Shown here: positions 6,834 through 19,379 of the stretch, in pieces
Layout: each line of letters begins with the position of its first letter
How positions within the stretch are numbered: the first letter of the stretch is position 1
IMG/VR virus record: IMGVR_UViG_3300037418_002559
Location: 79,999 to 100,317 of that record
Source of the DNA: a virus
Lineage: Duplodnaviria > Heunggongvirae > Uroviricota > Caudoviricetes
Direction: 5' to 3' (one strand)
Length of the DNA stretch: 20,319 bases
The notes under the pieces: model-generated
Told to the model about the DNA's origin: nothing
Databases searched by the model: none
The model's input: the letters and a program-made list of their open reading frames with translations, nothing else
Program-made: the position numbers and the translations under genes

Positions 6834-7408
6834 CAAGCCGCCGCCAGTCTGGTTCCCAGCGCCTTCCAATAACCACCGCCAGGATCGTAGTACGTCTGAA
6901 GTATGCGGTATTGCTCATCGTCGTATTCTAGAATGTCGCTGGCGCTCGCTTCCGAGTTAACCGTTATCTGCCACACTACGTAGGGCGGCTCCGGCGGAGC
7001 AACATTAAATGTCAGCGTGCTGCCTGTGAGCGTGTAATCCACACCTTGCGGCTGCAGCAACAGGCCTGCCGAGTACACGTCAACCGCACCGCTGGGCGAC
7101 GCGCTCAGAGTGTAGACAGCCCCGGAACCTTGTGGCGTTTCTCCGTACACACCTGGCACTGGCGCGTAGCCGCGCGTGGTGTACACTGGCCTAGTGCACC
7201 AAAAGGAGAAAATGCTGCCAATGCGGTCAGCTTCTTGCAGCATGGATAGTTCCTTGTTGTTAGCCTGCTGCACTGGGCCAAACATTGGGATGGACGTGGT
7301 CGTGGATTCGAAGCCGCCGAGTACAAATTTGCCCGTACTGCGCAGGATCGTGAACGGCTTGGGAGCAATCATGTCTGGATCGACTACGACCTCGAATACC
7401 GAGATCAT
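6833..7408 (-). CDS. Head closure / head-tail joining protein with an inserted beta-domain
   Basis: PFTILRSTG..., GPVQQANNKELSMLQEADR, and SDILEYDDEQYRIL...WKALGTR flank an insert at aa ~83-150. ATGA overlap with the upstream gene. Confidence 0.7.
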   Translation of the reverse strand: MISVFEVVVDPDMIAPKPFTILRSTGKFVLGGFESTTTSIPMFGPVQQANNKELSMLQEADRIGSIFSFWCTRPVYTTRGYAPVPGVYGETPQGSGAVYTLSASPSGAVDVYSAGLLLQPQGVDYTLTGSTLTFNVAPPEPPYVVWQITVNSEASASDILEYDDEQYRILQTYYDPGGGYWKALGTRLAAA

Positions 7409-7641
7409 TTCTGTTTCACCGTGTACGTCGGCACCTGCACGATGCCCCTGCCCGGTGCGGTGAAGGTGCTCCAGCGAACCGTCACCTTAACTTCTTGACC
7501 TTCTTTCCTGCACTCATCAGCGTACTCAAACGCTTGTTTCTTGAGCAGTTTCAGCGCCCGCTCTGAAAAAGCCGCGTGCGAGGTGAATTCGCGGGGCAGC
7601 TGACCGTCACCAACCGGCAGCACTTCTCGACTCCTCAGCAT
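7405..7641 (-). CDS. Hypothetical 78-aa protein with N-terminal SREVLPVGD motif
   Basis: GAGGAG SD 7 nt before the ATG, and the stop overlaps the next ATG (ATGA), so it is likely a real gene. Function not recognised. Confidence 0.65.
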   Translation of the reverse strand: MLRSREVLPVGDGQLPREFTSHAAFSERALKLLKKQAFEYADECRKEGQEVKVTVRWSTFTAPGRGIVQVPTYTVKQK

Positions 7642-10224: not shown

Positions 10225-11271
10225 TTAGATACCGTCCAAGTAGTAAGCGGTGGTGGTCCGCTTGTAAATGACCTGGCTGATGCAACCGGCGAACATTGTT
10301 TCGTACGCACCGCCTGCGCGGGTCGTCGGGACGGAGAGTGCCTGGATCATCGGCTGTGGAATCTTCAAGTACACCGATTTCTTGGAGTTCTTGTAGAAGA
10401 AGCCACGGTCAAGTCCATTACCGCCAGTGGGGGACCCTGGCGGCAGCGTGTTACCACTACCAGTACCACTGATCCATGGGTTGGGGAGGAAGTTGATCTT
10501 GAAGTCAATCCCGTTATGCGCTGCAACGCAGTTCTTCTCCACGTACTCAATGGTGCTCATTGCAACAGGCGAGCCGCCGATTGCGATGGGCTGAGTAAGT
10601 GTAGCGAACTGGGTGTACGGAATCAGCAAGCGATCGGCCATACCCTCAGCGGCGGAGTAACCGGAGTTCTCCACAGTCTGATTGAGCGCAAAGTTGATGT
10701 CCGCAAGAATTTCCTGCGGCGTCTTTCGCGCCCAAGTGGACGACCCAGCAGCGCCGTTCGGCGCTACCGACTCGAAGATGTTCGGGTTGTTGATCAGTCC
10801 GGGATCGCCAAGGAATCCGGCGTAGACGACGAAGTCCAGCGCCTTGCCCCAGGTGGTCTCGACCGACTCCTCGTAAAGCTCTTGCAAGCTGAACGGGGGA
10901 GCCTGTCCGGTGCGCAGTGCGGTCTCCATGCGGCGCAGGTCAATCCAGGTGATGGTCATTCCCATCGCCCAGTTGTACGTGCGCCAGATGCCCTTCTGGA
11001 TGTCGGCCTGCGCTTCGGGGATCTCCGTGTTGTTGGTACCCTGCAGCCCGTAAAATTGGGTGCCGGTGGATGCGTAGTTGGAAGCGAACGCCGAAATGAA
11101 TTCCGGGAAGCCTCCGCCTACTTCAACAGCGATGTCACGTTTGTGCGTGACAGCCTGCAACGGACGAACTAGGTCCGTGTCGATGAGTTCCAGCTGGCTT
11201 TGGAGGAACGCCAGACCGGATGCGCCCGACGCGTCGAAACCGCGCGAACGATTTGGAATAGTACGCTTCAT
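10225..11271 (-). CDS. Major capsid protein (DUF2184 / encapsulin-like HK97 fold)
   Basis: RGFDASG...LAFLQSQLELID; ALDFVVYAGF...GLINNP; WARKTPQEILADIN...ADRLLIP. AAGGAG SD. Confidence 0.92.
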   Translation of the reverse strand: MKRTIPNRSRGFDASGASGLAFLQSQLELIDTDLVRPLQAVTHKRDIAVEVGGGFPEFISAFASNYASTGTQFYGLQGTNNTEIPEAQADIQKGIWRTYNWAMGMTITWIDLRRMETALRTGQAPPFSLQELYEESVETTWGKALDFVVYAGFLGDPGLINNPNIFESVAPNGAAGSSTWARKTPQEILADINFALNQTVENSGYSAAEGMADRLLIPYTQFATLTQPIAIGGSPVAMSTIEYVEKNCVAAHNGIDFKINFLPNPWISGTGSGNTLPPGSPTGGNGLDRGFFYKNSKKSVYLKIPQPMIQALSVPTTRAGGAYETMFAGCISQVIYKRTTTAYYLDGI

Positions 11272-11285
11272 TGTCTGTGCTCTCC

Positions 11286-12089
11286 TTAGGCCGCGTTACG
11301 AACCTTGATGGTGATTTCGAGGATGTTGTTGCTGTCCAGATGGCCGGTACGTGCGACGACATTGGGCAGCGCCACGAGGTTGCTGAGCGTGATGGGCGTT
11401 CCGCCCGGGATGATAGCCGTGGTGTTCTGGTTGAGCACGATGGCAGTCGTACCGCCACCACTGACGATGTAGCTGCCAGGAGCGATGCCGAAACCGGTCA
11501 CGACCTGCCCATTCTGCGTATTGGCTGCAGAAGCAAGCGTAACCGCAGTACCAATAGCGGCTGCGGTGGCCGTAGTGCTAAACAGGTCGGTGGCAGCTGG
11601 ATTGGTTTCCCAATCTCCGATGACACCAGCAGGCACAGCTCCGTTGAGAACGACGCGTGTGTAAACCTGCGCCTCCGCCAGTGGCGCACCAACGCTCAAC
11701 AGAATGGTCCCATTACCGCGCTCCAGCACTTCGGACATCTGCTCGTTGGCGTAGTAGCCAACTTGCTGGATGCCTGGCTGCTGTCCAGCCGGGTAGGTGA
11801 GCTGAGTTTTAACCTCGCGCACTGCCATGCCAGCGAACGCCGAAGCGACGAGCGCAATGCCAGCAGCCGAATGTCCTACGAGGTCGGCCACCGAGGTAAC
11901 TGCACCGCCGCCGTTGCCGACGCCGGGAAGGATGACCGCAGGGTCTCCGAAGTTAAGATTGTTGGTTGCGGTGTACGGAATGAACTGACGCGCCATGATG
12001 ACGCGCTCGCCGAAGCGGCTAACCGTACCTTGGAAGCCGTTATTCGGCCCTGTCACATTGATGACTTGGCCGAAGCTGAACTGTGGCAT
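11286..12089 (-). CDS. Capsid decoration/cement protein with an inserted beta-domain
   Basis: Lies between scaffold and capsid. NNGFQGTVSR, LNFGDPAV, FAGMAVREVK and VLERG motifs. TAATG coupling with the upstream gene. Confidence 0.75.
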   Translation of the reverse strand: MPQFSFGQVINVTGPNNGFQGTVSRFGERVIMARQFIPYTATNNLNFGDPAVILPGVGNGGGAVTSVADLVGHSAAGIALVASAFAGMAVREVKTQLTYPAGQQPGIQQVGYYANEQMSEVLERGNGTILLSVGAPLAEAQVYTRVVLNGAVPAGVIGDWETNPAATDLFSTTATAAAIGTAVTLASAANTQNGQVVTGFGIAPGSYIVSGGGTTAIVLNQNTTAIIPGGTPITLSNLVALPNVVARTGHLDSNNILEITIKVRNAA

Positions 12090-12985
12090 TATTTGCCTCC
12101 TTTATGGGCGGTGTTGTAGAACTCCTGCATCTTGCTGATCGGATCTGCCTTGCCAGCGTCCGTAGCGCGAGTGCGGTCAGTGGGATTGGGACTACGGCCA
12201 GCTTTGTCACGCGCACGTGCCGAGGAGGCAAACGCACCGTAACTTCCGGTCGAAGTACGGCTAGACTTCTTTACAGAATCGAGCGCGCGGTTGAATGTAG
12301 CCTGGAACGCCTTGTCGTTGGAGCGAGCTGCGAAAGGACGAATCATGCGCAGTACGGCTGTGGCCGCGTCTGCCGCACGTGCACGATCGGACGCCTTACC
12401 CTTGTCACTGGCTACTTCCACGTCCTCCTGATCATCGTCGGAGTCGGGATCTGGGCTTTCGCCCTCCTCATCCATGGCCTCTTCGCCGCTGGCTTCCATT
12501 GACTCGCCGGGGCATTCCTCACCGTCGTGCGCCTTGCCACATTCTGCGCACGGCTCTTCGTCGTCCGCCTCGCCAGCAAGTACAGCTTCCAGCTCCGACG
12601 GATCAACTTCGGGATCGTCGTCATTCGCAGCATGCTCCGCCTCGCCTTCTTCCTCAGAAAGGAATTCGTCGAGAAGAGTTTTCAAAGCCTCGATGTTGGC
12701 GTCCTTGGCTTTCGCATCCTTGGCACGCGCGTCCAGAGCACGATCCAGCGCGCGCGCCAGTGCATCGTGCGCCCGATTGCTGTCCTCTGCTTTGAACTCA
12801 TTTTCCTTGAGCGCAGCCGGCACTTCGCCGTCCTTGCTGCGCGCATCTTCGGCGTTGGGTTCTTCCGGCTCGTGCAGAGCCTCCGCCGCCTCCATGATCT
12901 TCTCAGGGTCGGCATCCGTGGCTCGCGCCATCTCGATGATATGCTTTCCCATGAAAAGACGAAGCAGTTTGTTGGGTTTTGCCAC
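12089..12985 (-). CDS. Putative nested in-frame scaffold protein (298 aa) from an internal GTG
   Basis: TAAGGAG (12995-13001) lies 9 nt before an in-frame GTG at 12985 (codon 250), at the linker/scaffold boundary. Confidence 0.6.
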   Translation of the reverse strand: MAKPNKLLRLFMGKHIIEMARATDADPEKIMEAAEALHEPEEPNAEDARSKDGEVPAALKENEFKAEDSNRAHDALARALDRALDARAKDAKAKDANIEALKTLLDEFLSEEEGEAEHAANDDDPEVDPSELEAVLAGEADDEEPCAECGKAHDGEECPGESMEASGEEAMDEEGESPDPDSDDDQEDVEVASDKGKASDRARAADAATAVLRMIRPFAARSNDKAFQATFNRALDSVKKSSRTSTGSYGAFASSARARDKAGRSPNPTDRTRATDAGKADPISKMQEFYNTAHKGGK

Positions 12986-13732
12986 GGGTTGCTTCTCCTT
13001 ATTTGGTTTGAAATTGATTGCTATTGGTGGGTACGCTGGAAGGGCTTCGATAACTTCCGCCACTGGCGCAGGTTGTACATCTATTGGTAAACTTGTGTTG
13101 TCCTCGGGCGCAGCGTCTTCGATGCGCACAAGATCACCCGCGCGACCGCTCGGCACCACGGCATTGTGGTTCCCGAGCATGTTGCACTGGATGATTTTTT
13201 CGCCGTCGCGTTCAATGCCGAAGTCGTAGCCAAGACTGAGCTCGCGCGCCGCCTTGCTGCGAACCTTGCCAATGAGCGGCTCAGCGCTGATAACGAGATC
13301 GGCGATGATAGGCCATTCACCGTCCTCCAGCGGCTCCGTGCCCTTGCGGACATTCTGGATGTGCCCCTTGGCGTACTTGTTGAAGTTCTCTGGATCGACG
13401 AACTCACCACCGGGCGGGTGACCGTCGGTGATGGGCTTGCCGTTGAGCGAGGCCAGGAACTCTGGGTTGAACACCTCGCTCGCAGGTCGGTAGAGCTCGA
13501 TGGACGCCTCCGGGTTGCTGATGTCCACACCAAGATCGGCGGCGCGCTGCTGCGGCAGATCCTTGACGGCGTACTTCTGCCAGCCGGTGCGAGCTATCGG
13601 GCAGCCGACGACGACGAGGTAGCCCTCGTCCGTCATGTGGATGTTGTCGGTGAGCGGGCTGGCGAGGTAGCCGTGCGGGCTGCGCGTCGCGGGCAGCACC
13701 TCCAGGTCTTCCAACTCCTCGGTGTCGATCAT
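12089..13732 (-). CDS. Prohead maturation protease (DUF2213-like) fused to a scaffold domain
   Basis: GYLVVVGCPIARTG, PITDGHP (H105), RELSLGY (S166), NHNAVVPSGRAG, followed by an acidic/helical scaffold. ATGA overlap with the upstream gene. Confidence 0.92.
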   Translation of the reverse strand: MIDTEELEDLEVLPATRSPHGYLASPLTDNIHMTDEGYLVVVGCPIARTGWQKYAVKDLPQQRAADLGVDISNPEASIELYRPASEVFNPEFLASLNGKPITDGHPPGGEFVDPENFNKYAKGHIQNVRKGTEPLEDGEWPIIADLVISAEPLIGKVRSKAARELSLGYDFGIERDGEKIIQCNMLGNHNAVVPSGRAGDLVRIEDAAPEDNTSLPIDVQPAPVAEVIEALPAYPPIAINFKPNKEKQPVAKPNKLLRLFMGKHIIEMARATDADPEKIMEAAEALHEPEEPNAEDARSKDGEVPAALKENEFKAEDSNRAHDALARALDRALDARAKDAKAKDANIEALKTLLDEFLSEEEGEAEHAANDDDPEVDPSELEAVLAGEADDEEPCAECGKAHDGEECPGESMEASGEEAMDEEGESPDPDSDDDQEDVEVASDKGKASDRARAADAATAVLRMIRPFAARSNDKAFQATFNRALDSVKKSSRTSTGSYGAFASSARARDKAGRSPNPTDRTRATDAGKADPISKMQEFYNTAHKGGK

Positions 13733-15417
13733 ACCGGCAGCACCTCCCTGCTGTCCTTTGCGCGCGCCCTATCCTTCAGCTCGTGCTTTATGTCTTCGAT
13801 GTCTTCCTCTATTTGGCGCGTGTTGCCGCCGTACTGCGGCTTTCCCATCGTCCGCGCGTCCTTCAGCGCTTTTTCAAGGTCGACAAGGGTGCTGCGCAGA
13901 GCGGACTCGCTCCATTCGCGAGTATTCGCTATGTCCTTGGCACGTCCAGCAGCGGCCTTCTTGGCCATGCCAGCAGCGCCGTACTTCTTGCGCCCGATGG
14001 AGGCCGCCAGCGCGCCGGGCTCGGCGACGCCCTTCTCATGACTGAGTTCGCCCTTGAGCTTGGCGAAGCCCTCGTGTTCGTCGGTCGCCTTTCCATTGCG
14101 GTACAACTTCGCACATTTGGGGCTTTTGTCTAGGTGCGCTTGTAGCTGCTTCGAGTCTGCAAATACTTTCGAGCACCCAGCGCATTGTACGCGTGCGTAG
14201 CTGATGTCGCCGATGCGCACTCTACCCGGCAGCACCTTAGTTCCGCGCACCGTGACCGATTCCCCAGCCCTTGTGCGCTCGATCGCCACGCGAATCGCGG
14301 TGTCCGCTGAGTCGCAGACGCTCACCTTGCCGCGACCGGGATGCGTGTACTGCTGCGCGAACCTGGCCTGACAGGCCTCGATGCCGTCGCGCGCCTTGGT
14401 CTCGTTGGCGGCGTCACCGGCGCGGCGGTAGCCGGAAGCGGCTGCGCGGTAGCTGTCCAGCGCGCGCGCGCGGTCGCCCGCAATCTCGTACTGGACGGCC
14501 CGCGTCATGTGGTCTTGCGGCTCGGAGCCGGAGGTCTGTAGCGGCAGCGTGGCGATGTTGTCGCCAGCCTTGGCGAATCTACCTCGGTCGCGCGCGCCGC
14601 GCGAAGCGTAGGTCGCTTCGCCGTTCTCCGTCGGCAGCGGCACCAGATTGCTGGTCTTGACGGCTATGGGTAGCACGTCCTTGCCGCGCCGCTTCAGTGC
14701 CTCGCGCGCTTTCTCCTGCCGCGCGTTCTTGTCCAATTTAGCCCAATCGGACTCGCTGATACCGAGCGCCGCGCGAACCTCGTCCGCCTGTATGTCCTTC
14801 GCCTTCATGTCTGCAGCCTTTCCAGCGCGCTCGAAGAACGCGCAAACGTCGTGCTCGTGTACTATAGGCAGCCCTGCACCGTTCTTGGGCTGCTTGCTGC
14901 TTTTGACCATGGTTGGTTGGTCGCAGCCACTGTCCTTGGCCATGTATTTGCAGTGCTCGCAGTCGCGCGCGCCTACTCCGCCGCCCTTCTCGAACCCGGT
15001 GACCGGCTCGGCGGAGTCCTGCGACTTGGTGACTCCAGCCTCGTGCTTCTTCAGCGCCACGGCGCGCTCCGGGTCGCCGACAGGCTGGAGTTCGTCCTTG
15101 GTGCGCGCTGCCTCGTAATACGCCAGTATCTCCTTGGCATTGACCGGATCAGCCGCCTTGACGAATTCCGCGAACGTATTCTTACGGCCTGCCTTTAAGT
15201 ACGCCGCCGTAAGATCTTTGAGGCTTCGCGCCAGGGCTGCGCTGGTTTTCGAACCGCGTGGATTCTTCGGCCCGAAGCCCTTGAGCTTGGTGTAGTCGAA
15301 GTCCCTGCCCCGCGCCTTGCTCAACGCGATGGCTACGGCCTGCTTGTGAGGCTTGCCAGCCGCCTGCTCAACCTCAATGTTGTGGCCGATGTTCTTCTTA
15401 CCCGCCAGTAGCGGCAT
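13729..15417 (-). CDS. 562-aa multi-module head-associated protein (candidate polyprotein)
   Basis: Probable start ATG 15417 (GGGAG SD). The N-terminal NIGHNI...GKPHKQAVAIALSKA peptide resembles a small domain common in phage head modules. It is followed by a 4-Cys module, helical modules and a C2HC zinc-finger-like motif. Confidence 0.75.
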   Translation of the reverse strand: MPLLAGKKNIGHNIEVEQAAGKPHKQAVAIALSKARGRDFDYTKLKGFGPKNPRGSKTSAALARSLKDLTAAYLKAGRKNTFAEFVKAADPVNAKEILAYYEAARTKDELQPVGDPERAVALKKHEAGVTKSQDSAEPVTGFEKGGGVGARDCEHCKYMAKDSGCDQPTMVKSSKQPKNGAGLPIVHEHDVCAFFERAGKAADMKAKDIQADEVRAALGISESDWAKLDKNARQEKAREALKRRGKDVLPIAVKTSNLVPLPTENGEATYASRGARDRGRFAKAGDNIATLPLQTSGSEPQDHMTRAVQYEIAGDRARALDSYRAAASGYRRAGDAANETKARDGIEACQARFAQQYTHPGRGKVSVCDSADTAIRVAIERTRAGESVTVRGTKVLPGRVRIGDISYARVQCAGCSKVFADSKQLQAHLDKSPKCAKLYRNGKATDEHEGFAKLKGELSHEKGVAEPGALAASIGRKKYGAAGMAKKAAAGRAKDIANTREWSESALRSTLVDLEKALKDARTMGKPQYGGNTRQIEEDIEDIKHELKDRARAKDSREVLPV

Positions 15418-15428
15418 TGTCGTTCTCC

Positions 15429-15737
15429 CTAGACTGCTGCGGTCAGTGCGCCGGTTGCGAGGTTGACGGTGGACGTGTTGCCCGGCCCTCCCGCCGCTAC
15501 TCCGGCGATGTTGGTGGCTCCGCTCACGGTGAGCCATTCTGTCTGTCCGGCCAGGATGGTGACGCCGGTGGACTGCGTAACGGTGGTTGTGCCGTCACCC
15601 AACATGACCGTGATGTGGCATGGCCCCAGGTTGGCTACGCGCAGCACCGCGCCGGAGCCGGGAAGTGCGATGTTGGTGGACGCGAAGCCGAAACTGGTGC
15701 CTTGCGCGGCGCTTACGCTGAAAGATCCTGCTGCCAT
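15429..15737 (-). CDS. Small all-beta protein, probable minor virion/capsid surface protein
   Basis: 102 aa, AAGGAG SD, alternating beta pattern (LRVANLGPCHITVMLG...GVTILAGQTEWLTV), Gly/Thr/Ala-rich. Confidence 0.55.
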   Translation of the reverse strand: MAAGSFSVSAAQGTSFGFASTNIALPGSGAVLRVANLGPCHITVMLGDGTTTVTQSTGVTILAGQTEWLTVSGATNIAGVAAGGPGNTSTVNLATGALTAAV

Positions 15738-15739
15738 GA

Positions 15740-16411
15740 CTAAGTTCTCCTTGCCTTATCTAAATGCTCTATGGCGGTGCGCAACAGCTCGGTCTTTTGG
15801 CTCTCCGTGCGCCGCATGTATTCTTTGATGTCTATCCCCAACGCATCCAGTATCTTGTGCATCGGATACCGATTGAGCGGCAGACTACCGTCGAACGCCC
15901 TACGCCTCGGCTTGTATTCTGCCAGGTTGTAAGTATGGCAGCTGGTAGCCACTTTGCGCTCCTTGTACCAAGCCAACAGCGCCGCCAGCAGCAGCGCGCG
16001 GCTCAAGACGCCGTCTTTAGCTTGCCCGCGTTCAGTTGGCTCTAACAATCCGTAATAACGCGGTTCAAGTAACCCGCGCCCGGTGCCATCCAGTGGATGT
16101 GGATCGTGCACCAACTTGCCGTCGTAGGCTACACAAGCATGTAGGCCACCGCGTGGGCTTATACCTTCAATCGTGCTGTAGCCGCTCGGCTTACTACCAC
16201 TAAGCGGCACGCGACGATACCGTAGACCGCGCTCGCCGAGCCAACCTTGTACGTTGGCCCAGTAATCGTCAAGCTCGGTAGCGTTATGCATGTATTTGCG
16301 CGGCCCGTCGAAGTCGACAACGTCGGACTCCGGTACGTCAAAAATGGAGGCGATACAAGAGCGAAAGCAAGTGCCGTTATCACCTACGCGAGACTGCGTC
16401 ACTAAGCGCAT
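15740..16411 (-). CDS. Papain-like (C39-like) cysteine peptidase domain plus C-terminal modules
   Basis: Q6...NGTC15FRSCIASIF, GGLH91ACV and VHD103P give a Gln/Cys/His/Asp arrangement. The C-terminal ~90 aa are separate modules. Confidence 0.7.
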   Translation of the reverse strand: MRLVTQSRVGDNGTCFRSCIASIFDVPESDVVDFDGPRKYMHNATELDDYWANVQGWLGERGLRYRRVPLSGSKPSGYSTIEGISPRGGLHACVAYDGKLVHDPHPLDGTGRGLLEPRYYGLLEPTERGQAKDGVLSRALLLAALLAWYKERKVATSCHTYNLAEYKPRRRAFDGSLPLNRYPMHKILDALGIDIKEYMRRTESQKTELLRTAIEHLDKARRT

Positions 16412-16602
16412 AAGAATAACTGCTCCTGTGCTTCAACCTGCGCATCTTCGAAGAACTTGCTGTCTATCATATCGACGGCATCTTGCTCTCTTGAAAATCG
16501 CATAGCCTCACAGATTTCTGTACTGTAAGTGAACTCGCCCAAATACACAGTAAACCAGCACGGCCTATTCAGGTCTGTTCTTGCAATTATCCACGCTACC
16601 AT
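16402..16602 (-). CDS. Hypothetical protein (66 aa)
   Basis: GGAGG SD, overlaps its neighbours, lower-GC segment. Confidence 0.55.
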   Translation of the reverse strand: MVAWIIARTDLNRPCWFTVYLGEFTYSTEICEAMRFSREQDAVDMIDSKFFEDAQVEAQEQLFLCA

Positions 16603-16777
16603 TTCCTGCCTCCAGCCGATTGCGTAGTAGCTCCAACTGCTGCGCTTCCAGGAACATACTGTGCGCTAGACTCGCGCACTTATTTTCCATGAAGCAACGA
16701 TCGGCTGCTTTTGTCGGATCCATACGCATGTAATGCTCAAAGATGCGCTGGCGTTCTTGCGTTGATACGAGCTCCAT
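16565..16777 (-). CDS. Hypothetical helical protein (~70 aa)
   Basis: Follows the portal stop. Probable ATG 16777 with GGAG upstream; the ORF track starts at GTG 16795. Confidence 0.45.
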   Translation of the reverse strand: MELVSTQERQRIFEHYMRMDPTKAADRCFMENKCASLAHSMFLEAQQLELLRNRLEAGNGSVDNCKNRPE

Positions 16778-16802
16778 AACCAAGGCTCCGTTCACAGAAC
16801 AA

Positions 16803-19379
16803 TTACCGCTGTACAGCAGGGCTACAAGGCGCAGTCATATCTGCCGTAGCGATCCACCGACGAAACATTGGCATGGTGAACGGCGTTATGGCTGCGAACG
16901 TTTTCTTTGATAGGTGATGGCCTAACATGTAGTCTTCCAGCGCCGACTCTTGCGTGTGGTAGCCGAGCATCACCTTGTGCTCGTCGAATCGCTTTCCGTT
17001 GATATCGTACTGGTCCACGACGTAGACGTTGCTCGACTCCGGTGCAGGGCCAATGTAGCAGTCTAGGCTGTCCTCATCGGCCGCAGGTGCGCCATCGATA
17101 AAGCCGTAGTCTGCTGGCATGTTGACGCTCCACGACCTGCCGTCTGGCGTGATGCCGGAGCGCACCGTGCCCTGCCGCGACTCAACGCGTACTGGCATGG
17201 CGTGATAGAGCTCGAAGTCAATGGCGCGCTGCGTCATACTGGAAGCGCCATCGTCGTCGGTGGCGCGGTCACGTTCCATACACTTACTACATTTTTCTGT
17301 CTGCGGAAGTCGTGCCCATTCTTCCGCAGTGGCAACCAATAGTGTGCCACCGCGCCTAGCTGTTGCACCACACTTCGACTTACTGGTGTTGGTTTGACTG
17401 GGTGCGTGGAACTTCTGTGCGGAGTCGGTGGCTTTAGTCCTGCCAGTAGCTGGAACCCTCCGCGTCGGATAGTTCAACGAGATGAACTGTTCGACGCCGT
17501 CTTTAGGGTCGACGGCCTTTTGTTTGCCAGTTTTCTTTAGTGTCAAGTACTCAGAACCAAACCGCCAAAGGAAATGTTCTCCAATTGCCAGGTCGCGGAA
17601 CAATACAGATTCCTCCGCATCCTCCGCATCCTCCGCATCCTCCGCACGCACCTTCACGTCCTTGTTCGGACGGTAGGCGACGATCTCGCCGGTGTCGAAC
17701 AACACCTGTACGGTAGGCTCTCCAAATAAGTCCGTCGTACCAGTGGTGACCTTCCGCACGGTCAGCAATTTGCCGTTGACCAGCACCTTCTCGCCTGCAC
17801 TGAGACCAGACGGTAGTGTGTCCATGGCTGGCGCTGTGTCCTGCGCTTCCCCGGCCTTTGCAAGCAGCTGCTTCTTCGCGTCCTCCTTGCCTTCTTCGTT
17901 CTCAGCTTTGATAGCCTTGCCGGGGCTATCCGCCTCGTTCAAGCCAGCGCCTTCACCGCCGAACAGACCATCACCCAGCTCGCCCTCCGATTGAACGTCG
18001 TCACTGAGCTTAGCGATGAACTCGTCATCGAGGTTGGTGCCGATGCCGGTAATGTCGCTGGACTGCTTAACTTCCTGCGCCACCTTGCGCGGCGACATAA
18101 TACCGCCGTTGAGGTACACAGTAGTGGTGTCGGCCACGGACTTGGCCAGCTCGGCCTTCTCCTTCTCGTCCAGCACGCGTATAGAAGGGCAATTCAGATC
18201 CAGATCGTCTGGCACTTCGCCCAACTCCGACATGCACACTACTGGGTACAGCTTCTCCAGTTGCGGAACCATGTAGGTGGATTGATCTGTAGCTATCTTC
18301 TCCTCGTAGATGCGCTCGTCGCCATCTCCGGCCTGCCCAAGTCCGCTGTACGTACGTCCGAACAGACGCGTCACCGGCATCTGCGCCGCTCCCGCCAAGT
18401 TCAACTGGAACAGCTGCAGGACGTCGCTCAGCCCGCCGAAGCTGTACTGTGTCGACTCAAGACCGCCGTCGGCTGGCAGCGGAATCAGCGAGTTGTTCGA
18501 CATGAGGTGATTGACGGCGGACATGCGCTGCTCGAACTTCTGCGAGGCCAGCTGCGACGATCCGAGCCCGGACAGCAGTTCGGCCAGCTGTGGGAACTTC
18601 ATGCCGAGCAGGTTGGCGCGGAAAGAAAGCGACAGGATGTTCCAGTACATGTTGTCCAGCATGGTGATGGACTCGTACGTCGGCTCCAGCACGCTGATGC
18701 CCCAGTAACTCTGCGCTTCTACCTCCGGCGTCGGTACGGTTGGCCCAAGGAAGCGCAGCAGCCGAGACGCATGCACCTGAAAAGCAGAGCCGCCGTTTAC
18801 GCGCACCTCGTACATCTCCGGCTTGTTGAAATCTAGCGGGCGATTTATGTCAGTGCACACATCGCCGACAGGCGTGATGCCTGCCCAGCGATCAAACGGG
18901 ATAACACCCTTGTACGCACCGATGCGAATGGACTCTAAATCCAATGGCTGGTCGAGTTCATTCTCCTGCCCATCAATAACGATGAGCGCGCCCGCGCCAC
19001 CAAATAGACGGCCCCAAGTGAGCCCGGTCAGTACGTTGTTCTTAGTGTTCGTACGCCGAATGGCGCGATCGACGCGCGTGAGATCCTTCGGCTCGAGATC
19101 GCTGGTCAGCTTGGGCCAAGCCTTGACCATGTCTTGCGCTGGTACTTCGACAATACGACGACTAATCCAGTGATTGCGGAACAAGGTGATCAGCTGCCAG
19201 TAATCGTAGCTGATACGCACCATGGTGTACTCAGCGCCCTGCCCCAACGACGGCGTACCAAATCCCATACGTGCTGCCGCATTGGTGAACATATCGGCAG
19301 CGGTGGCCGACGTGGCGCCGTGTACCCCCATGGCTTGCTCGAATGGGTTGGCGTGCTTACGTTTGCGCGGCTTCGGCAT
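16803..19379 (-). CDS. Portal protein (DUF1073-like) with a C-terminal multi-domain extension including an inorganic pyrophosphatase-like (InPase) domain
   Basis: Core motifs RRIVEVPAQDM, WGRLFGG, VHASRLLRF, WGISVLE, AAQMPVTRLFG in aa 1-~465. InPase-like motifs VESRQGTVRSG...W...ADYGFI...ADEDSLDCYIGP...FDEHKVMLG in aa ~720-850. Confidence 0.92.
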   Translation of the reverse strand: MPKPRKRKHANPFEQAMGVHGATSATAADMFTNAAARMGFGTPSLGQGAEYTMVRISYDYWQLITLFRNHWISRRIVEVPAQDMVKAWPKLTSDLEPKDLTRVDRAIRRTNTKNNVLTGLTWGRLFGGAGALIVIDGQENELDQPLDLESIRIGAYKGVIPFDRWAGITPVGDVCTDINRPLDFNKPEMYEVRVNGGSAFQVHASRLLRFLGPTVPTPEVEAQSYWGISVLEPTYESITMLDNMYWNILSLSFRANLLGMKFPQLAELLSGLGSSQLASQKFEQRMSAVNHLMSNNSLIPLPADGGLESTQYSFGGLSDVLQLFQLNLAGAAQMPVTRLFGRTYSGLGQAGDGDERIYEEKIATDQSTYMVPQLEKLYPVVCMSELGEVPDDLDLNCPSIRVLDEKEKAELAKSVADTTTVYLNGGIMSPRKVAQEVKQSSDITGIGTNLDDEFIAKLSDDVQSEGELGDGLFGGEGAGLNEADSPGKAIKAENEEGKEDAKKQLLAKAGEAQDTAPAMDTLPSGLSAGEKVLVNGKLLTVRKVTTGTTDLFGEPTVQVLFDTGEIVAYRPNKDVKVRAEDAEDAEDAEESVLFRDLAIGEHFLWRFGSEYLTLKKTGKQKAVDPKDGVEQFISLNYPTRRVPATGRTKATDSAQKFHAPSQTNTSKSKCGATARRGGTLLVATAEEWARLPQTEKCSKCMERDRATDDDGASSMTQRAIDFELYHAMPVRVESRQGTVRSGITPDGRSWSVNMPADYGFIDGAPAADEDSLDCYIGPAPESSNVYVVDQYDINGKRFDEHKVMLGYHTQESALEDYMLGHHLSKKTFAAITPFTMPMFRRWIATADMTAPCSPAVQR
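17611..17646. repeat. Perfect 9-bp tandem repeat (TCCTCCGCA)x4 encoding AED-AED-AED-AEE in the portal extension
   Basis: Read directly from the sequence. Confidence 0.95.

Follow-up and report, generated by a model that had tools for sequence, protein, structure and literature searches.

Aspartate-terminated motifs in the head proteins of an uncultured soil phage as probable cleavage marks of a DUF2213 prohead protease

A four-residue motif ending in aspartate, [KR]-[AGTS]-x-D, recurs in the capsid, portal, scaffold and large internal head protein of an uncultured soil phage, and the stretch of 20,319 nucleotides analysed here (the window) raises the question of what this motif marks. We consider it probable that it is the cut mark of the phage's own head-maturation protease, a DUF2213 domain, with cleavage directly after the aspartate. 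The core site is likely to consist of a small residue (Ala or Gly), any residue and Asp, then a further small residue, with this clade preferring Lys or Arg one position further upstream. Sites were counted and placed on the translated minus-strand genes, of which the following are central.

10225-11271, minus strand: major capsid protein, 348 aa (Pfam PF09950, E=5.7e-34; PHROG 264)
12089-13732, minus strand: protease-scaffold protein, 547 aa, with the DUF2213 domain N-terminal
12092-13114, minus strand: scaffold part of the protease-scaffold protein, aa 207-547, with 15 [KR]-[AGTS]-x-D sites
13729-15417, minus strand: 562-aa modular internal head protein, with 14 [KR]-[AGTS]-x-D sites
15740-16411, minus strand: 223-aa protein (PHROG 5845)
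16803-19379, minus strand: portal protein, 858 aa (Pfam PF06381, E=2.9e-90, and PF18823, E=3.9e-34; PHROG 146)

The sites that an earlier note had counted by eye are recovered by this placement. The motif fits 14 of the 37 aspartates of the 562-aa protein; the 15 or so sites attributed to the scaffold correspond to 17 in the protease-scaffold protein, 15 of them in the scaffold part; RAED, KATD and RATD lie in the portal extension at 578, 649 and 705; RAFD lies at aa 171 of the 223-aa protein, a peptidase candidate; and RGFD occupies capsid residues 10-13 (nt 11233-11244). The same note had proposed a composition-preserving shuffle test, and the counts lie far above the shuffled expectation (17 against 1.7 in the protease-scaffold protein and 14 against 2.3 in the 562-aa protein, p<0.0002 for each), an enrichment that is unchanged when shuffling is confined to blocks of 20 or 40 aa. 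The version ending in glutamate, [KR][AGTS].E, shows no enrichment (1-2 observed, about 2 expected), nor do other spacings or the reversed pattern. An unbiased scan of all residue pairs at spacings of 1-4 (1096 tests) ranks alanine two positions before aspartate (p=4e-9) and arginine three positions before it (p=9e-9) at the top, both exceeding all other pairs by four to five orders of magnitude, and the motif is therefore not a post hoc artefact. Its codons are varied, so the signal lies at the level of the protein and is not a DNA repeat. The sheath, tube and tape measure proteins contain no [KR][AGTS].D, as had been noted, an absence that by itself carries little weight, the three proteins together having an expectation of about 1.2 sites.

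The candidate enzyme is encoded in the same polypeptide as the scaffold.

13115-13636, minus strand: DUF2213 prohead protease domain (PF09979, now named Pa193_gp24), aa 33-206, with candidate catalytic residues H105, S166 and H189

The match to PF09979 scores 117.3 bits against a cut-off of 22 (E=8.8e-34) and spans aa 33-206 and profile positions 3-166 of 167. An AlphaFold2 model of the domain (pLDDT 91) has T4 gp21 as its best structural match (5jbl; Z 11.1, 130 aa, rmsd 2.9) and also matches the herpesvirus proteases of VZV (Z 8.5), HCMV (6.6) and KSHV (5.0), the next unrelated entries having Z of at most 4.7; Foldseek alone gives a weak match (E 0.025). As modelled, the domain is a prohead protease of the T4 gp21/herpesvirus assemblin fold. 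S166, H105 and H189 are invariant in an alignment of 74 sequences with 36-82% identity to the window protein and are also kept in PB1 gp22. The window and all fetched loci share a gene order in which the portal is followed further on by the protease-scaffold protein, a 267-aa protein and the capsid protein.

If the motif is a cleavage site, the positions at which leaders meet mature proteins are where it should be most constrained in placement, and two such positions stand out.

11233-11244, minus strand: capsid leader/mature border R-G-F-D, aa 10-13, with predicted mature start A14
19293-19304, minus strand: T-A-A-D, aa 26-29, candidate cut site at the portal N-terminus, immediately ahead of the conserved start MFTNAAARMGFGTP

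R[AG]FD is common to the capsid proteins of all close relatives, and D13 is invariant at 43-93% identity. In each of 21 distinct capsid proteins the FLxSQLE anchor is preceded, at a distance of 9-10 residues, by an Asp, with Ala or Gly at P3 in 20 of the 21 and Ala or Ser at P1' in every one. The capsid leaders vary in length and sequence (approximately 13-32 aa in the window and loci L010-L013), ending in the motif before a conserved mature start. Seven portals from diverged loci have a variable basic leader that ends in [AG]-x-D directly before a conserved block. The portal T-A-A-D site had escaped the earlier note.

An experimental anchor for these borders comes from the PB1-like phages, distant relatives of this phage. 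Edman sequencing of the mature capsid protein of KPP12 places its N-terminus directly after S-A-M-D (PMC3474789), and in the PB1 capsid protein the same Edman sequence is preceded by ...RSGSAMD64; the cryo-EM capsid models of E217 and Pa193 begin at residue 66 (PMC10329688, PMC11456595). When 25 kb of PB1 are read in all six frames, AMDS is found at exactly three places: the capsid site, the portal N-terminus (V-A-M-D76|S) and the scaffold. Neither the map nor LC-MS shows the first 93 residues of the Pa193 portal (PMC11456595). The PB1-like site has Ser at P4, not Lys or Arg, and the four-residue motif is not enriched in the PB1 scaffold (2 against 0.9 expected). The claim that a DUF2213 protease cleaves after Asp is thus well supported by the gp21/assemblin fold, the invariant S166, H105 and H189, the motif at leader/mature borders and the KPP12 capsid N-terminus; that cutting occurs in this phage, which sites it uses and the fate of the fragments are inferred.

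Motif conservation against module turnover, a comparison that the earlier note had also suggested, points in the same direction: across eight related contigs, the orthologues of the scaffold and of the 562-aa protein are motif-enriched without exception, despite the turnover. The scaffold part, which aligns with the Pa193 gp24 scaffolding protein (PDB 9b40), holds the tandem motif run RALDRALDARAKDAKAKD, and RATD 270, RAAD 452, RSND 470, RALD 482, RARD 506 and RATD 522 are kept in scaffold orthologues of 63-70% identity. Enrichment is present in 48 of approximately 123 long, distant protease-scaffold representatives, down to approximately 35% identity, and motif strength tracks DUF2213 clades. 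Family-wide, [AG].D is 1.9-fold enriched, with z>2 in 76% of proteins, and [AG].E is depleted (0.7-fold). Lys/Arg at P4 is a preference of this subfamily, the family-wide core being [AG]-x-D followed by a small residue; capsid sites of close relatives have Gln at P4 as often as Arg, and the portal N-terminal site of the window is T-A-A-D. In three cultured DUF2213 phages (JustaPhage, RHph_N28_2 and the T1-like AHS24) the motif is not enriched and the capsid protein has no obvious leader site, and the rule is therefore not universal for the family. The motif supplies a cleavage rule that can be put to the test in a very large family of proteases, therapeutic Pseudomonas phages included.

The portal carries further sites in a C-terminal extension.

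17205-17885, minus strand: portal extension linker, aa 499-725, with five [KR]-A-x-D sites (RAED 578, KAVD 621, KATD 649, RATD 705, RAID 718)
16851-17204, minus strand: InPase (type I pyrophosphatase-like) domain fused to the portal (Pfam PF18823)

The protein consists of Phage_portal_3 (aa 62-420), the modular linker (aa 499-725) and the C-terminal InPase (aa 726-843). The broad motif is marginal here (5 against 2.0 expected, p ~0.05) and [KR]A.D is clear (5 against 0.6 expected), all five sites belonging to the 227-aa linker that joins the portal domain to the InPase. Immediately ahead of the InPase a site recurs, as RAAD in L010, RATD in L011, where the InPase is a separate ORF, and RSQD in L012. 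The PHROG matches of the InPase part fall in large polyvalent-type proteins, and InPase domains have been described in phage polyvalent proteins and in portal fusions (Iyer et al. 2017; PMC5512222). The portal-fused InPase is probably a released cargo domain.

The two remaining head proteins have sites at or near the borders of their modules.

15301-15417, minus strand: N-terminal 39-aa module of the 562-aa protein (MPLLAGKK...ALSKARGRD; PHROG 2423, E=5e-10)
13732-13752, minus strand: C-terminal heptapeptide SREVLPV of the 562-aa protein, after the last site RAKD, aa 552-555
15890-15901, minus strand: RAFD of the 223-aa protein, aa 171-174, followed by GSLPL

Orthologues of the 562-aa protein are 424-748 aa long (called frames trimmed to the likely start) and contain shuffled modules. 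Homology-block borders of this protein lie within 5 aa of a site in 35% of cases against 19% at random, and in the AlphaFold model 9 of the 14 sites are no more than 5 aa from a border between order and disorder. The 39-aa module ends in the first site and is 51% identical to the N-terminus of the 68-aa PB1 gp20 (E=7e-8). In L012, L017 and L019 a similar module, ending in G-[VI]-D, opens the gene just upstream of the protease; in L010 and L011 that gene begins with a similar MP... module and has no such site at that position. The 39-aa module could be a leader, or else a small virion protein module. The predicted fragments of the 562-aa protein are 5-102 aa long and mostly helical or disordered, no enzyme domain was found in it by Pfam, and three sites lie inside a folded module, observations that leave the earlier proposal of many small independent effectors cut from this protein unsupported. 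The remainder of the proposed cleavage system is supported by the gp21-like fold, the sites at borders, the motif-littered scaffold, the flanked InPase and the KPP12 N-terminus.

The helical character of these proteins raises the possibility that the motif reflects their structure and is left uncut, arising from helix capping, i to i+3 salt bridges or TPR-like or coiled-coil repeats. Helices are predicted for the scaffold and for much of the 562-aa protein, and Asp is a favoured helix N-cap and Lys and Arg favour helix C-ends, preferences that could add to the signal in a helical scaffold. Tandem RALDRALD runs are repeat-like, and RALD 318, RAGD 332 and KARD 341 lie inside a confident TPR-like helical module (pLDDT 78-89), where G-D-x-x-R-A-L-D-x-Y fits the repeat consensus and this consensus accounts for part of the motif. 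These three sites, RAAD 63 and RAGD 197 inside the protease domain (the latter overlapping the invariant GRAG) and KALD 143 inside the folded capsid protein need not be cut. However, salt bridges or capping would allow Glu or i-4 spacing, whereas only Asp at exactly +3/+2 is enriched; the motif also occurs in the non-helical, non-conserved capsid and portal leaders, exactly at the mature border; and the measured KPP12 capsid N-terminus begins right after such an Asp. We therefore regard a purely structural origin as improbable and continue to favor cleavage by the DUF2213 protease.

The Leu-Pro peptides that had been noticed after several sites are real and conserved, with E558, V559, P561, V562, L249, P250 and P112-P116 invariant among seven orthologues. 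An E-[VIL]-x-P-V peptide is kept after several sites and, without exception, closes the orthologues of the 562-aa protein at the C-terminus (seven of seven end in [KR]A[KR]D-xREVxPV), and LEVLPAT is found at the protease N-terminus. This conservation would fit a docking or capsid-targeting signal, composed of motif and peptide, that loads the prohead and is itself uncut; encapsulins are known to use cargo-loading peptides, and T4 internal proteins a capsid-targeting sequence. Pure docking, however, needs neither 15 scaffold copies nor a position at the capsid leader border, and the KPP12 N-terminus shows a cut at Asp, making this reading somewhat less plausible still. Docking and cutting are compatible, with the P-V peptide perhaps serving for targeting and the Asp motif for release.

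The N-terminal approximately 130 aa of the 223-aa protein resemble a C39-type papain-fold cysteine peptidase, a resemblance that we treat as a lead only: its ESM Atlas feature and structure neighbors carry Peptidase_C39, and Pfam at E up to 0.01 assigns no peptidase family to the portal, 562-aa or 223-aa proteins. Conservation among its orthologues is limited to aa 1-125/148, the C-terminal part being variable, and the L001 orthologue has 7 sites in this variable tail. That this domain, conserved beside the portal in L001-L012, or a host protease cuts the sites is the least likely reading, although caspases are cysteine proteases cutting after Asp and a host protease trims the capsid and scaffold proteins of Staphylococcus phage 80alpha. 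No homologue of this second peptidase candidate is present in L013 (contiguous from portal to capsid) or in the PB1 head region, yet in L013 the scaffold is rich in the motif (z 7.7) and the capsid site is there, and in PB1-like phages the capsid protein is cleaved after Asp. In addition, Gly-Gly is the characteristic cleavage signal of C39 peptidases, and motif strength follows the DUF2213 clades.

Under cleavage by the DUF2213 protease, all cuts would take place within the assembled prohead. The protease would trim the 13-residue capsid leader and the approximately 29-residue portal leader, and would then reduce its own scaffold tail to short peptides. The pyrophosphatase-like domain and smaller modules would be freed from the C-terminal extension of the portal, and the 562-aa and 223-aa head proteins would be cut at module borders.

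Such a system resembles that of T4 gp21, with which the DUF2213 domain shares its fold (Z 11.1), a similar gene neighborhood logic and an acidic P1, and in which a single protease inside the prohead trims the capsid protein, degrades the scaffold core to small peptides and removes the targeting peptides of internal proteins. The T4 sites are [LI]-x-E in gp23, gp22, gp67, gp68 and IPI-III; here, in contrast, P1 is Asp rather than Glu, P3 is Ala/Gly rather than Leu/Ile, protease and scaffold form a single polypeptide, and the capsid leader has 13 aa rather than 65. T4-type prohead proteases have an acidic P1 and a small P3, and SPN3US gp245 cuts after A-X-E (PMC10052503). The giant-phage enzymes (phiKZ gp175, that of 201phi2-1 and SPN3US gp245) cut after [S/A/G]-x-E, with a small P3, any P2, an acidic P1 and a small P1' as here (PMC10052503), and, as proposed here, they cut many head proteins, with several sites per propeptide. 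They differ in having Glu for Asp, the Glu version not being enriched here, in having Val where Lys/Arg (or Gln) occupies P4 here, and in the sequence of the protease, PF09979 being a distinct family at that level. Because Asp is enriched and Glu is not, we posit a variant that would work like the T4 and phiKZ systems with a different specificity.

A cultured comparison is offered by the Pbunavirus phages PB1, KPP12, E217 and Pa193, which have a homologous DUF2213-scaffold protein (annotated as 'putative scaffolding protein' in Pa193 gp24 and 'head maturation protease' in PB1 gp22), the genes in the same order (a portal with an InPase tail, then a small MPL... protein, the protease-scaffold, a decoration protein and the capsid protein) and a capsid protein matured by a cut after Asp with Ala at P3. 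PB1 differs in its A-M-D|S site without a basic P4, the few copies of this site, a 64-aa capsid leader and the lack of a 562-aa modular protein. The Pa193 study is silent on whether gp24 acts as a protease and leaves its cleavage open (PMC11456595).

Phage polyvalent proteins are likewise strings of swappable domains packaged in the head, including portal-fused InPase, for which processing into units has been proposed (PMC5512222). This processing was assigned to embedded zinc metallopeptidase domains (PMC5512222), of which none was found here by Pfam; the junctions here carry the prohead protease motif instead. A metallopeptidase (MPTase) domain is frequent in the polyvalent class and is not required. 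Typical effector domains are much larger than the modules of the 562-aa protein. The portal does combine several unrelated domains, InPase among them, in one head-packaged polypeptide, as is characteristic of the class, and the portals of the relatives L010 and L011 also carry a type IB topoisomerase (Top1B).

All genes of the window lie on the minus strand. The features that bear on head maturation are as follows.

19293-19304, minus strand: site T-A-A-D of the portal (residues 26-29), directly ahead of the conserved MFTNAAARMGFGTP block
16803-19379, minus strand: portal, 858 residues, with a Phage_portal_3 domain (residues 62-420), then a linker, then an InPase domain (residues 726-843)
16402-16795, minus strand: two small ORFs of 76 and 66 residues in the 391-base gap between the portal gene and the 223-aa gene, of lower G+C (0.53)
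15740-16411, minus strand: 223-aa protein, PHROG 5845
15429-15737, minus strand: 102-aa protein rich in Ala, Gly, Thr and Val, between the peptidase-like gene and the 562-aa gene
13729-15417, minus strand: 562-aa protein
13732-13752, 14668-14676 and 15082-15093, minus strand: E-[VIL]-x-P-V peptide, also at the protease N-terminus (13687-13704)
12089-13732, minus strand: protease-scaffold protein, 547 residues, with DUF2213 at residues 33-206
Minus strand, between the protease-scaffold and major capsid genes: 267-aa protein
10225-11271, minus strand: major capsid protein, PF09950
Minus strand, after the major capsid gene: neck, sheath, tube and tape-measure genes

The protein of about 100 residues is conserved in the window and in the related loci L001-L007, L010, L011 and L012, and has no family match.

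We think it probable that this module directs a T4-like head maturation in which the protease-scaffold fusion cuts after Asp in [KR/Q]-[AG]-x-D. On this reading the portal and the capsid protein would lose their leaders (A14 is the predicted start of the mature capsid protein), the scaffold would be broken down, and modules would be freed from the portal extension and from the 562-aa and 223-aa proteins. The earlier note had reported a recurrent [KR]-[AGTS]-x-D motif in these proteins, and its enrichment is real: against composition-preserving shuffles, the protease-scaffold protein has 17 sites versus 1.7 expected and the 562-aa protein 14 versus 2.3, and none of 5000 shuffles reached the observed count for either. 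The core form [KR]-A-x-D occurs 15, 10 and 5 times in the scaffold, the 562-aa protein and the portal (about 1, 1 and 0.6 expected). Enrichment is unchanged in block shuffles that keep local composition (20 or 40 residues), is lost when the basic or small residue is moved by one position or the pattern is reversed, and does not extend to Glu in place of Asp (1-2 sites versus about 2 expected); the global and local shuffles and the Glu control rule out a compositional bias toward K, R, A and D as the origin of the motif. A DNA-level repeat is likewise ruled out because codons vary in the 12 bases coding each site. As a guard against a post hoc motif, all residue pairs at spacings 1-4 were scanned in the scaffold part and the 562-aa protein (1096 tests), with Ala at D-2 (p = 4e-9) and Arg at D-3 (p = 9e-9) standing 4-5 orders of magnitude above all others. 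The sheath, tube and tape measure are motif-free, as had been claimed, but this absence is uninformative, given an expectation of only about 1.2 sites for the three proteins together.

The strongest comparative evidence for the predicted cut sites is their position. The capsid site R-G-F-D (residues 10-13) closes a short leader that is followed by the conserved ASGASGLAFLQSQLE... sequence. In diverged loci the leader ranges from 13 to about 32 residues, is unalignable and at times carries two tandem sites, and it always ends in the motif, abutting the conserved start. Among 21 distinct capsid proteins, which are a sample rather than a census because frames were recovered by regular expression in 25 of 72 loci, the Asp lies 9-10 residues ahead of the FLxSQLE anchor in every case, P1' is Ala or Ser in all 21, P3 is Ala or Gly in 20, P2 is mostly Phe, and P4 is Arg and Gln equally often. 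A phmmer search with the capsid protein found no relative in the PDB, and a literature search found no relevant published N-terminal sequence matching the conserved mature start. The portal has the same arrangement in all seven diverged portals compared: a basic leader of variable length, then [AG]-x-D, then the conserved MFTNAAARMGFGTP block. In the window this site is T-A-A-D, which the earlier note had missed because it has no basic residue.

The PB1-like phages share with the window the gene order and a small MPL... protein, and they provide an experimental anchor. The PB1 capsid sequence reads ...R-S-G-S-A-M-D64-S65-N66-F-T-A-P..., and in the PB1-like phage KPP12 the first 20 residues of the major virion protein were read by Edman sequencing (PMC3474789); this places the mature KPP12 capsid start immediately behind Asp64, and P3 is Ala. 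In E217 and Pa193, the cryo-EM capsid models begin at residue 66. The string AMDS occurs only three times in the six frames of 25 kb of PB1: at the capsid site, at the portal N-terminus (V-A-M-D76|S, the counterpart of the window's portal site) and in the C-terminal part of the scaffold; in Pa193, the first 93 portal residues are absent from both the map and the LC-MS data. That the motif is a docking signal, itself uncut, is a weaker explanation, against which the KPP12 start right behind one such Asp speaks. Searches of the literature on Bcep781, SU10/Kuravirus and cryo-EM in general found no further capsid N-terminus for a DUF2213 phage. In the PDB the protease-scaffold protein has a single relative, Pa193 gp24, which is entered there as a putative scaffolding protein (9b40, chain G) and after which Pfam PF09979 (DUF2213) is now named. 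Residues 286-326 of gp24 are bound inside the capsid, and the authors leave its cleavage undecided (PMC11456595). That paper does not mention a protease, though the conserved domain has a prohead protease fold with invariant Ser and His.

An alignment of 74 DUF2213 sequences has invariant H105, S166, H189, R48, R82, R197 and D206. The AlphaFold2 model of the domain (pLDDT 91) best matches the T4 gp21 prohead protease (Z 11.1, 130 residues, rmsd 2.9), followed by the varicella-zoster, cytomegalovirus and KSHV assemblins (Z 8.5, 6.6 and 5.0), with unrelated folds at 4.7 or below. A Foldseek search of the PDB with this model gave weak matches (best E 0.025) that nevertheless point to herpesvirus and T4 proteases. 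The T4 prohead protease cuts after [LI]-x-E. The SPN3US gp245 prohead protease cuts after A-X-E with Ser at P1' (PMC10052503). In both, P1 is acidic and P3 is small or hydrophobic; the window motif is the Asp counterpart. Sites that lie within folded domains are probably left uncut (RAAD 63 and RAGD 197 in the protease, KALD 143 in the capsid protein); RAGD 197 overlaps an invariant GRAG. Cutting by another protease is again a weaker alternative. A candidate within the module would be the N-terminal region of about 130 residues of the 223-aa protein, whose Atlas neighbours suggest a resemblance to C39-type papain-fold cysteine peptidases; this domain seems unlikely to be the cutter since it is missing from the diverged locus L013 and the PB1 head region, where the sites are present all the same. 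The C39-like domain stands alone (123-128 residues) in L010, L011 and L012, and carries variable, site-rich tails elsewhere.

In eight related viral contigs, capsid proteins are 91-93% identical and scaffolds 63-70%, and the orthologues of the 562-aa protein span 424-748 residues (called frames trimmed to the likely start) with shuffled modules. The scaffold is enriched in all eight (12-16 sites versus about 2.3 expected), as are the 562-aa orthologues despite the shuffling (5-13 versus 2.2-3.0); the Glu form is enriched in neither protein in any contig. Several scaffold sites are retained column by column amid diverging surroundings. Among 1.84 billion representative proteins, relatives of the DUF2213 protein form 4812 representative clusters (E up to 0.001). 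In a sample of about 123 long relatives with pairwise identity of at most 50%, the Asp motif reaches z >= 4 in 48, down to about 35% identity, and relatives without the basic residue are still enriched in Ala or Gly at -2, Phe or Met at -1 and Ala at +1 of Asp. Because [AG].D is 1.9-fold enriched over the scaffold parts of all 123 (1608 versus 848; z > 2 in 76% of proteins) and [AG].E is depleted (0.7-fold), small-x-Asp is taken as the family-wide core and Lys or Arg at P4 as a clade preference. However, neither the four- nor the three-residue motif is enriched in three cultured DUF2213 phages, JustaPhage, the Rhizobium phage RHph_N28_2 and the T1-like AHS24, and no clear capsid leader site was found in them; for this reason the rule is not extended to the DUF2213 family as a whole, and it fails in some clades.

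In the 562-aa protein, 35% of homology-block borders among orthologues lie within 5 residues of a site, versus 19% at random. Order/disorder borders lie within 5 residues of 9 of the 14 sites in an AlphaFold model that is poor (pLDDT 52) and was used for such borders only. That the motif is a purely structural helix feature is a weaker explanation. Sites 318, 332 and 341 fall inside a confident TPR-like helical module, and its repeat consensus partly explains them. The earlier suggestion that cutting turns this protein into many independent effectors finds no support, as the predicted fragments are 5-102 residues long with no detected enzyme domain; they resemble T4 internal peptides more closely than effectors. 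With 101 Lys+Arg and 75 Asp+Glu, the protein is net basic. Its first 39 residues (15301-15417) share homology with the entire N-terminus of the 68-aa PB1 gp20 (7277-7483 of the PB1 locus L009; 51% identity), so PB1 would have the leader alone and the window phage the leader plus cargo. A match to this module also opens the gene that lies immediately upstream of the protease in loci L012, L017 and L019, with an x-D site after each. The E-[VIL]-x-P-V peptide follows several sites (KD|ELQPVG, KD|VLPI), recurs as an invariant C-terminal xREVxPV in all 562-aa orthologues and as LEVLPAT near the protease N-terminus, and its role may lie in docking or targeting.

All five portal [KR]-A-x-D sites fall in the linker between the portal domain and the InPase domain, and a site directly ahead of InPase recurs in three diverged loci, one of which encodes InPase as a separate gene. 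In relatives, a type IB topoisomerase also lies in the portal between such sites, with the following coordinates.

L010, 1841-5107: portal fused to a bacterial-type topoisomerase IB (PF21338, PF01028) and InPase
L011, 1946-4381 and 4368-5000: topoisomerase-fused portal, and InPase

In L011 the InPase part is encoded on its own, by a gene whose start is just upstream of this same junction site.

Only tentatively, and with some doubt, we propose that three short signals make the head module a programmable cargo system: an N-terminal leader of about 39 residues (PHROG 2423, which the small protein PB1 gp20 shares), [KR/Q]-A-x-D sites at which the DUF2213 protease would release cargo, and E-[VIL]-x-P-V as a docking peptide behind the sites and at the C-terminus. 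Whatever module or enzyme stands between them would enter the prohead, be cut loose and be delivered together with the DNA. Candidate cargoes are InPase, the type IB topoisomerase of relatives, the C39-like peptidase, and mini-domains of zinc-ribbon and TPR-like type. If true, such a system would explain the fast module turnover among related phages.

Systems of this kind are known from T4, phiKZ, SPN3US and polyvalent proteins (PMC5512222); new here are an Asp-specific rule for the DUF2213 family and the use of this rule where cargo is joined to the portal. We found no statement of a cleavage rule for this family in the literature open to search, where DUF2213 is mentioned only incidentally and without specificity data. 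DUF2213 proteases are very common and include those of therapy-used, cryo-EM-solved PB1-like Pseudomonas phages, where the protein is called only a putative scaffold. Cutting after Asp in [AG]-x-D would permit prediction of mature capsid, portal and internal proteins from sequence alone, and would aid the reading of unexplained densities and missing termini in cryo-EM maps and the discovery, in uncultured phages, of cargo packaged in the head, for instance pyrophosphatase and topoisomerase domains fused to the portal. It would also add Asp to Glu as an acidic P1 residue known for T4-type prohead proteases, so that the basis of P1 choice in this fold becomes testable. A Cys pair, C-x-E-C-G... 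E-C-P-G, is conserved between the window and its relatives in the acidic middle of the scaffold (residues ~385-403; 12524-12580) and may bind metal.
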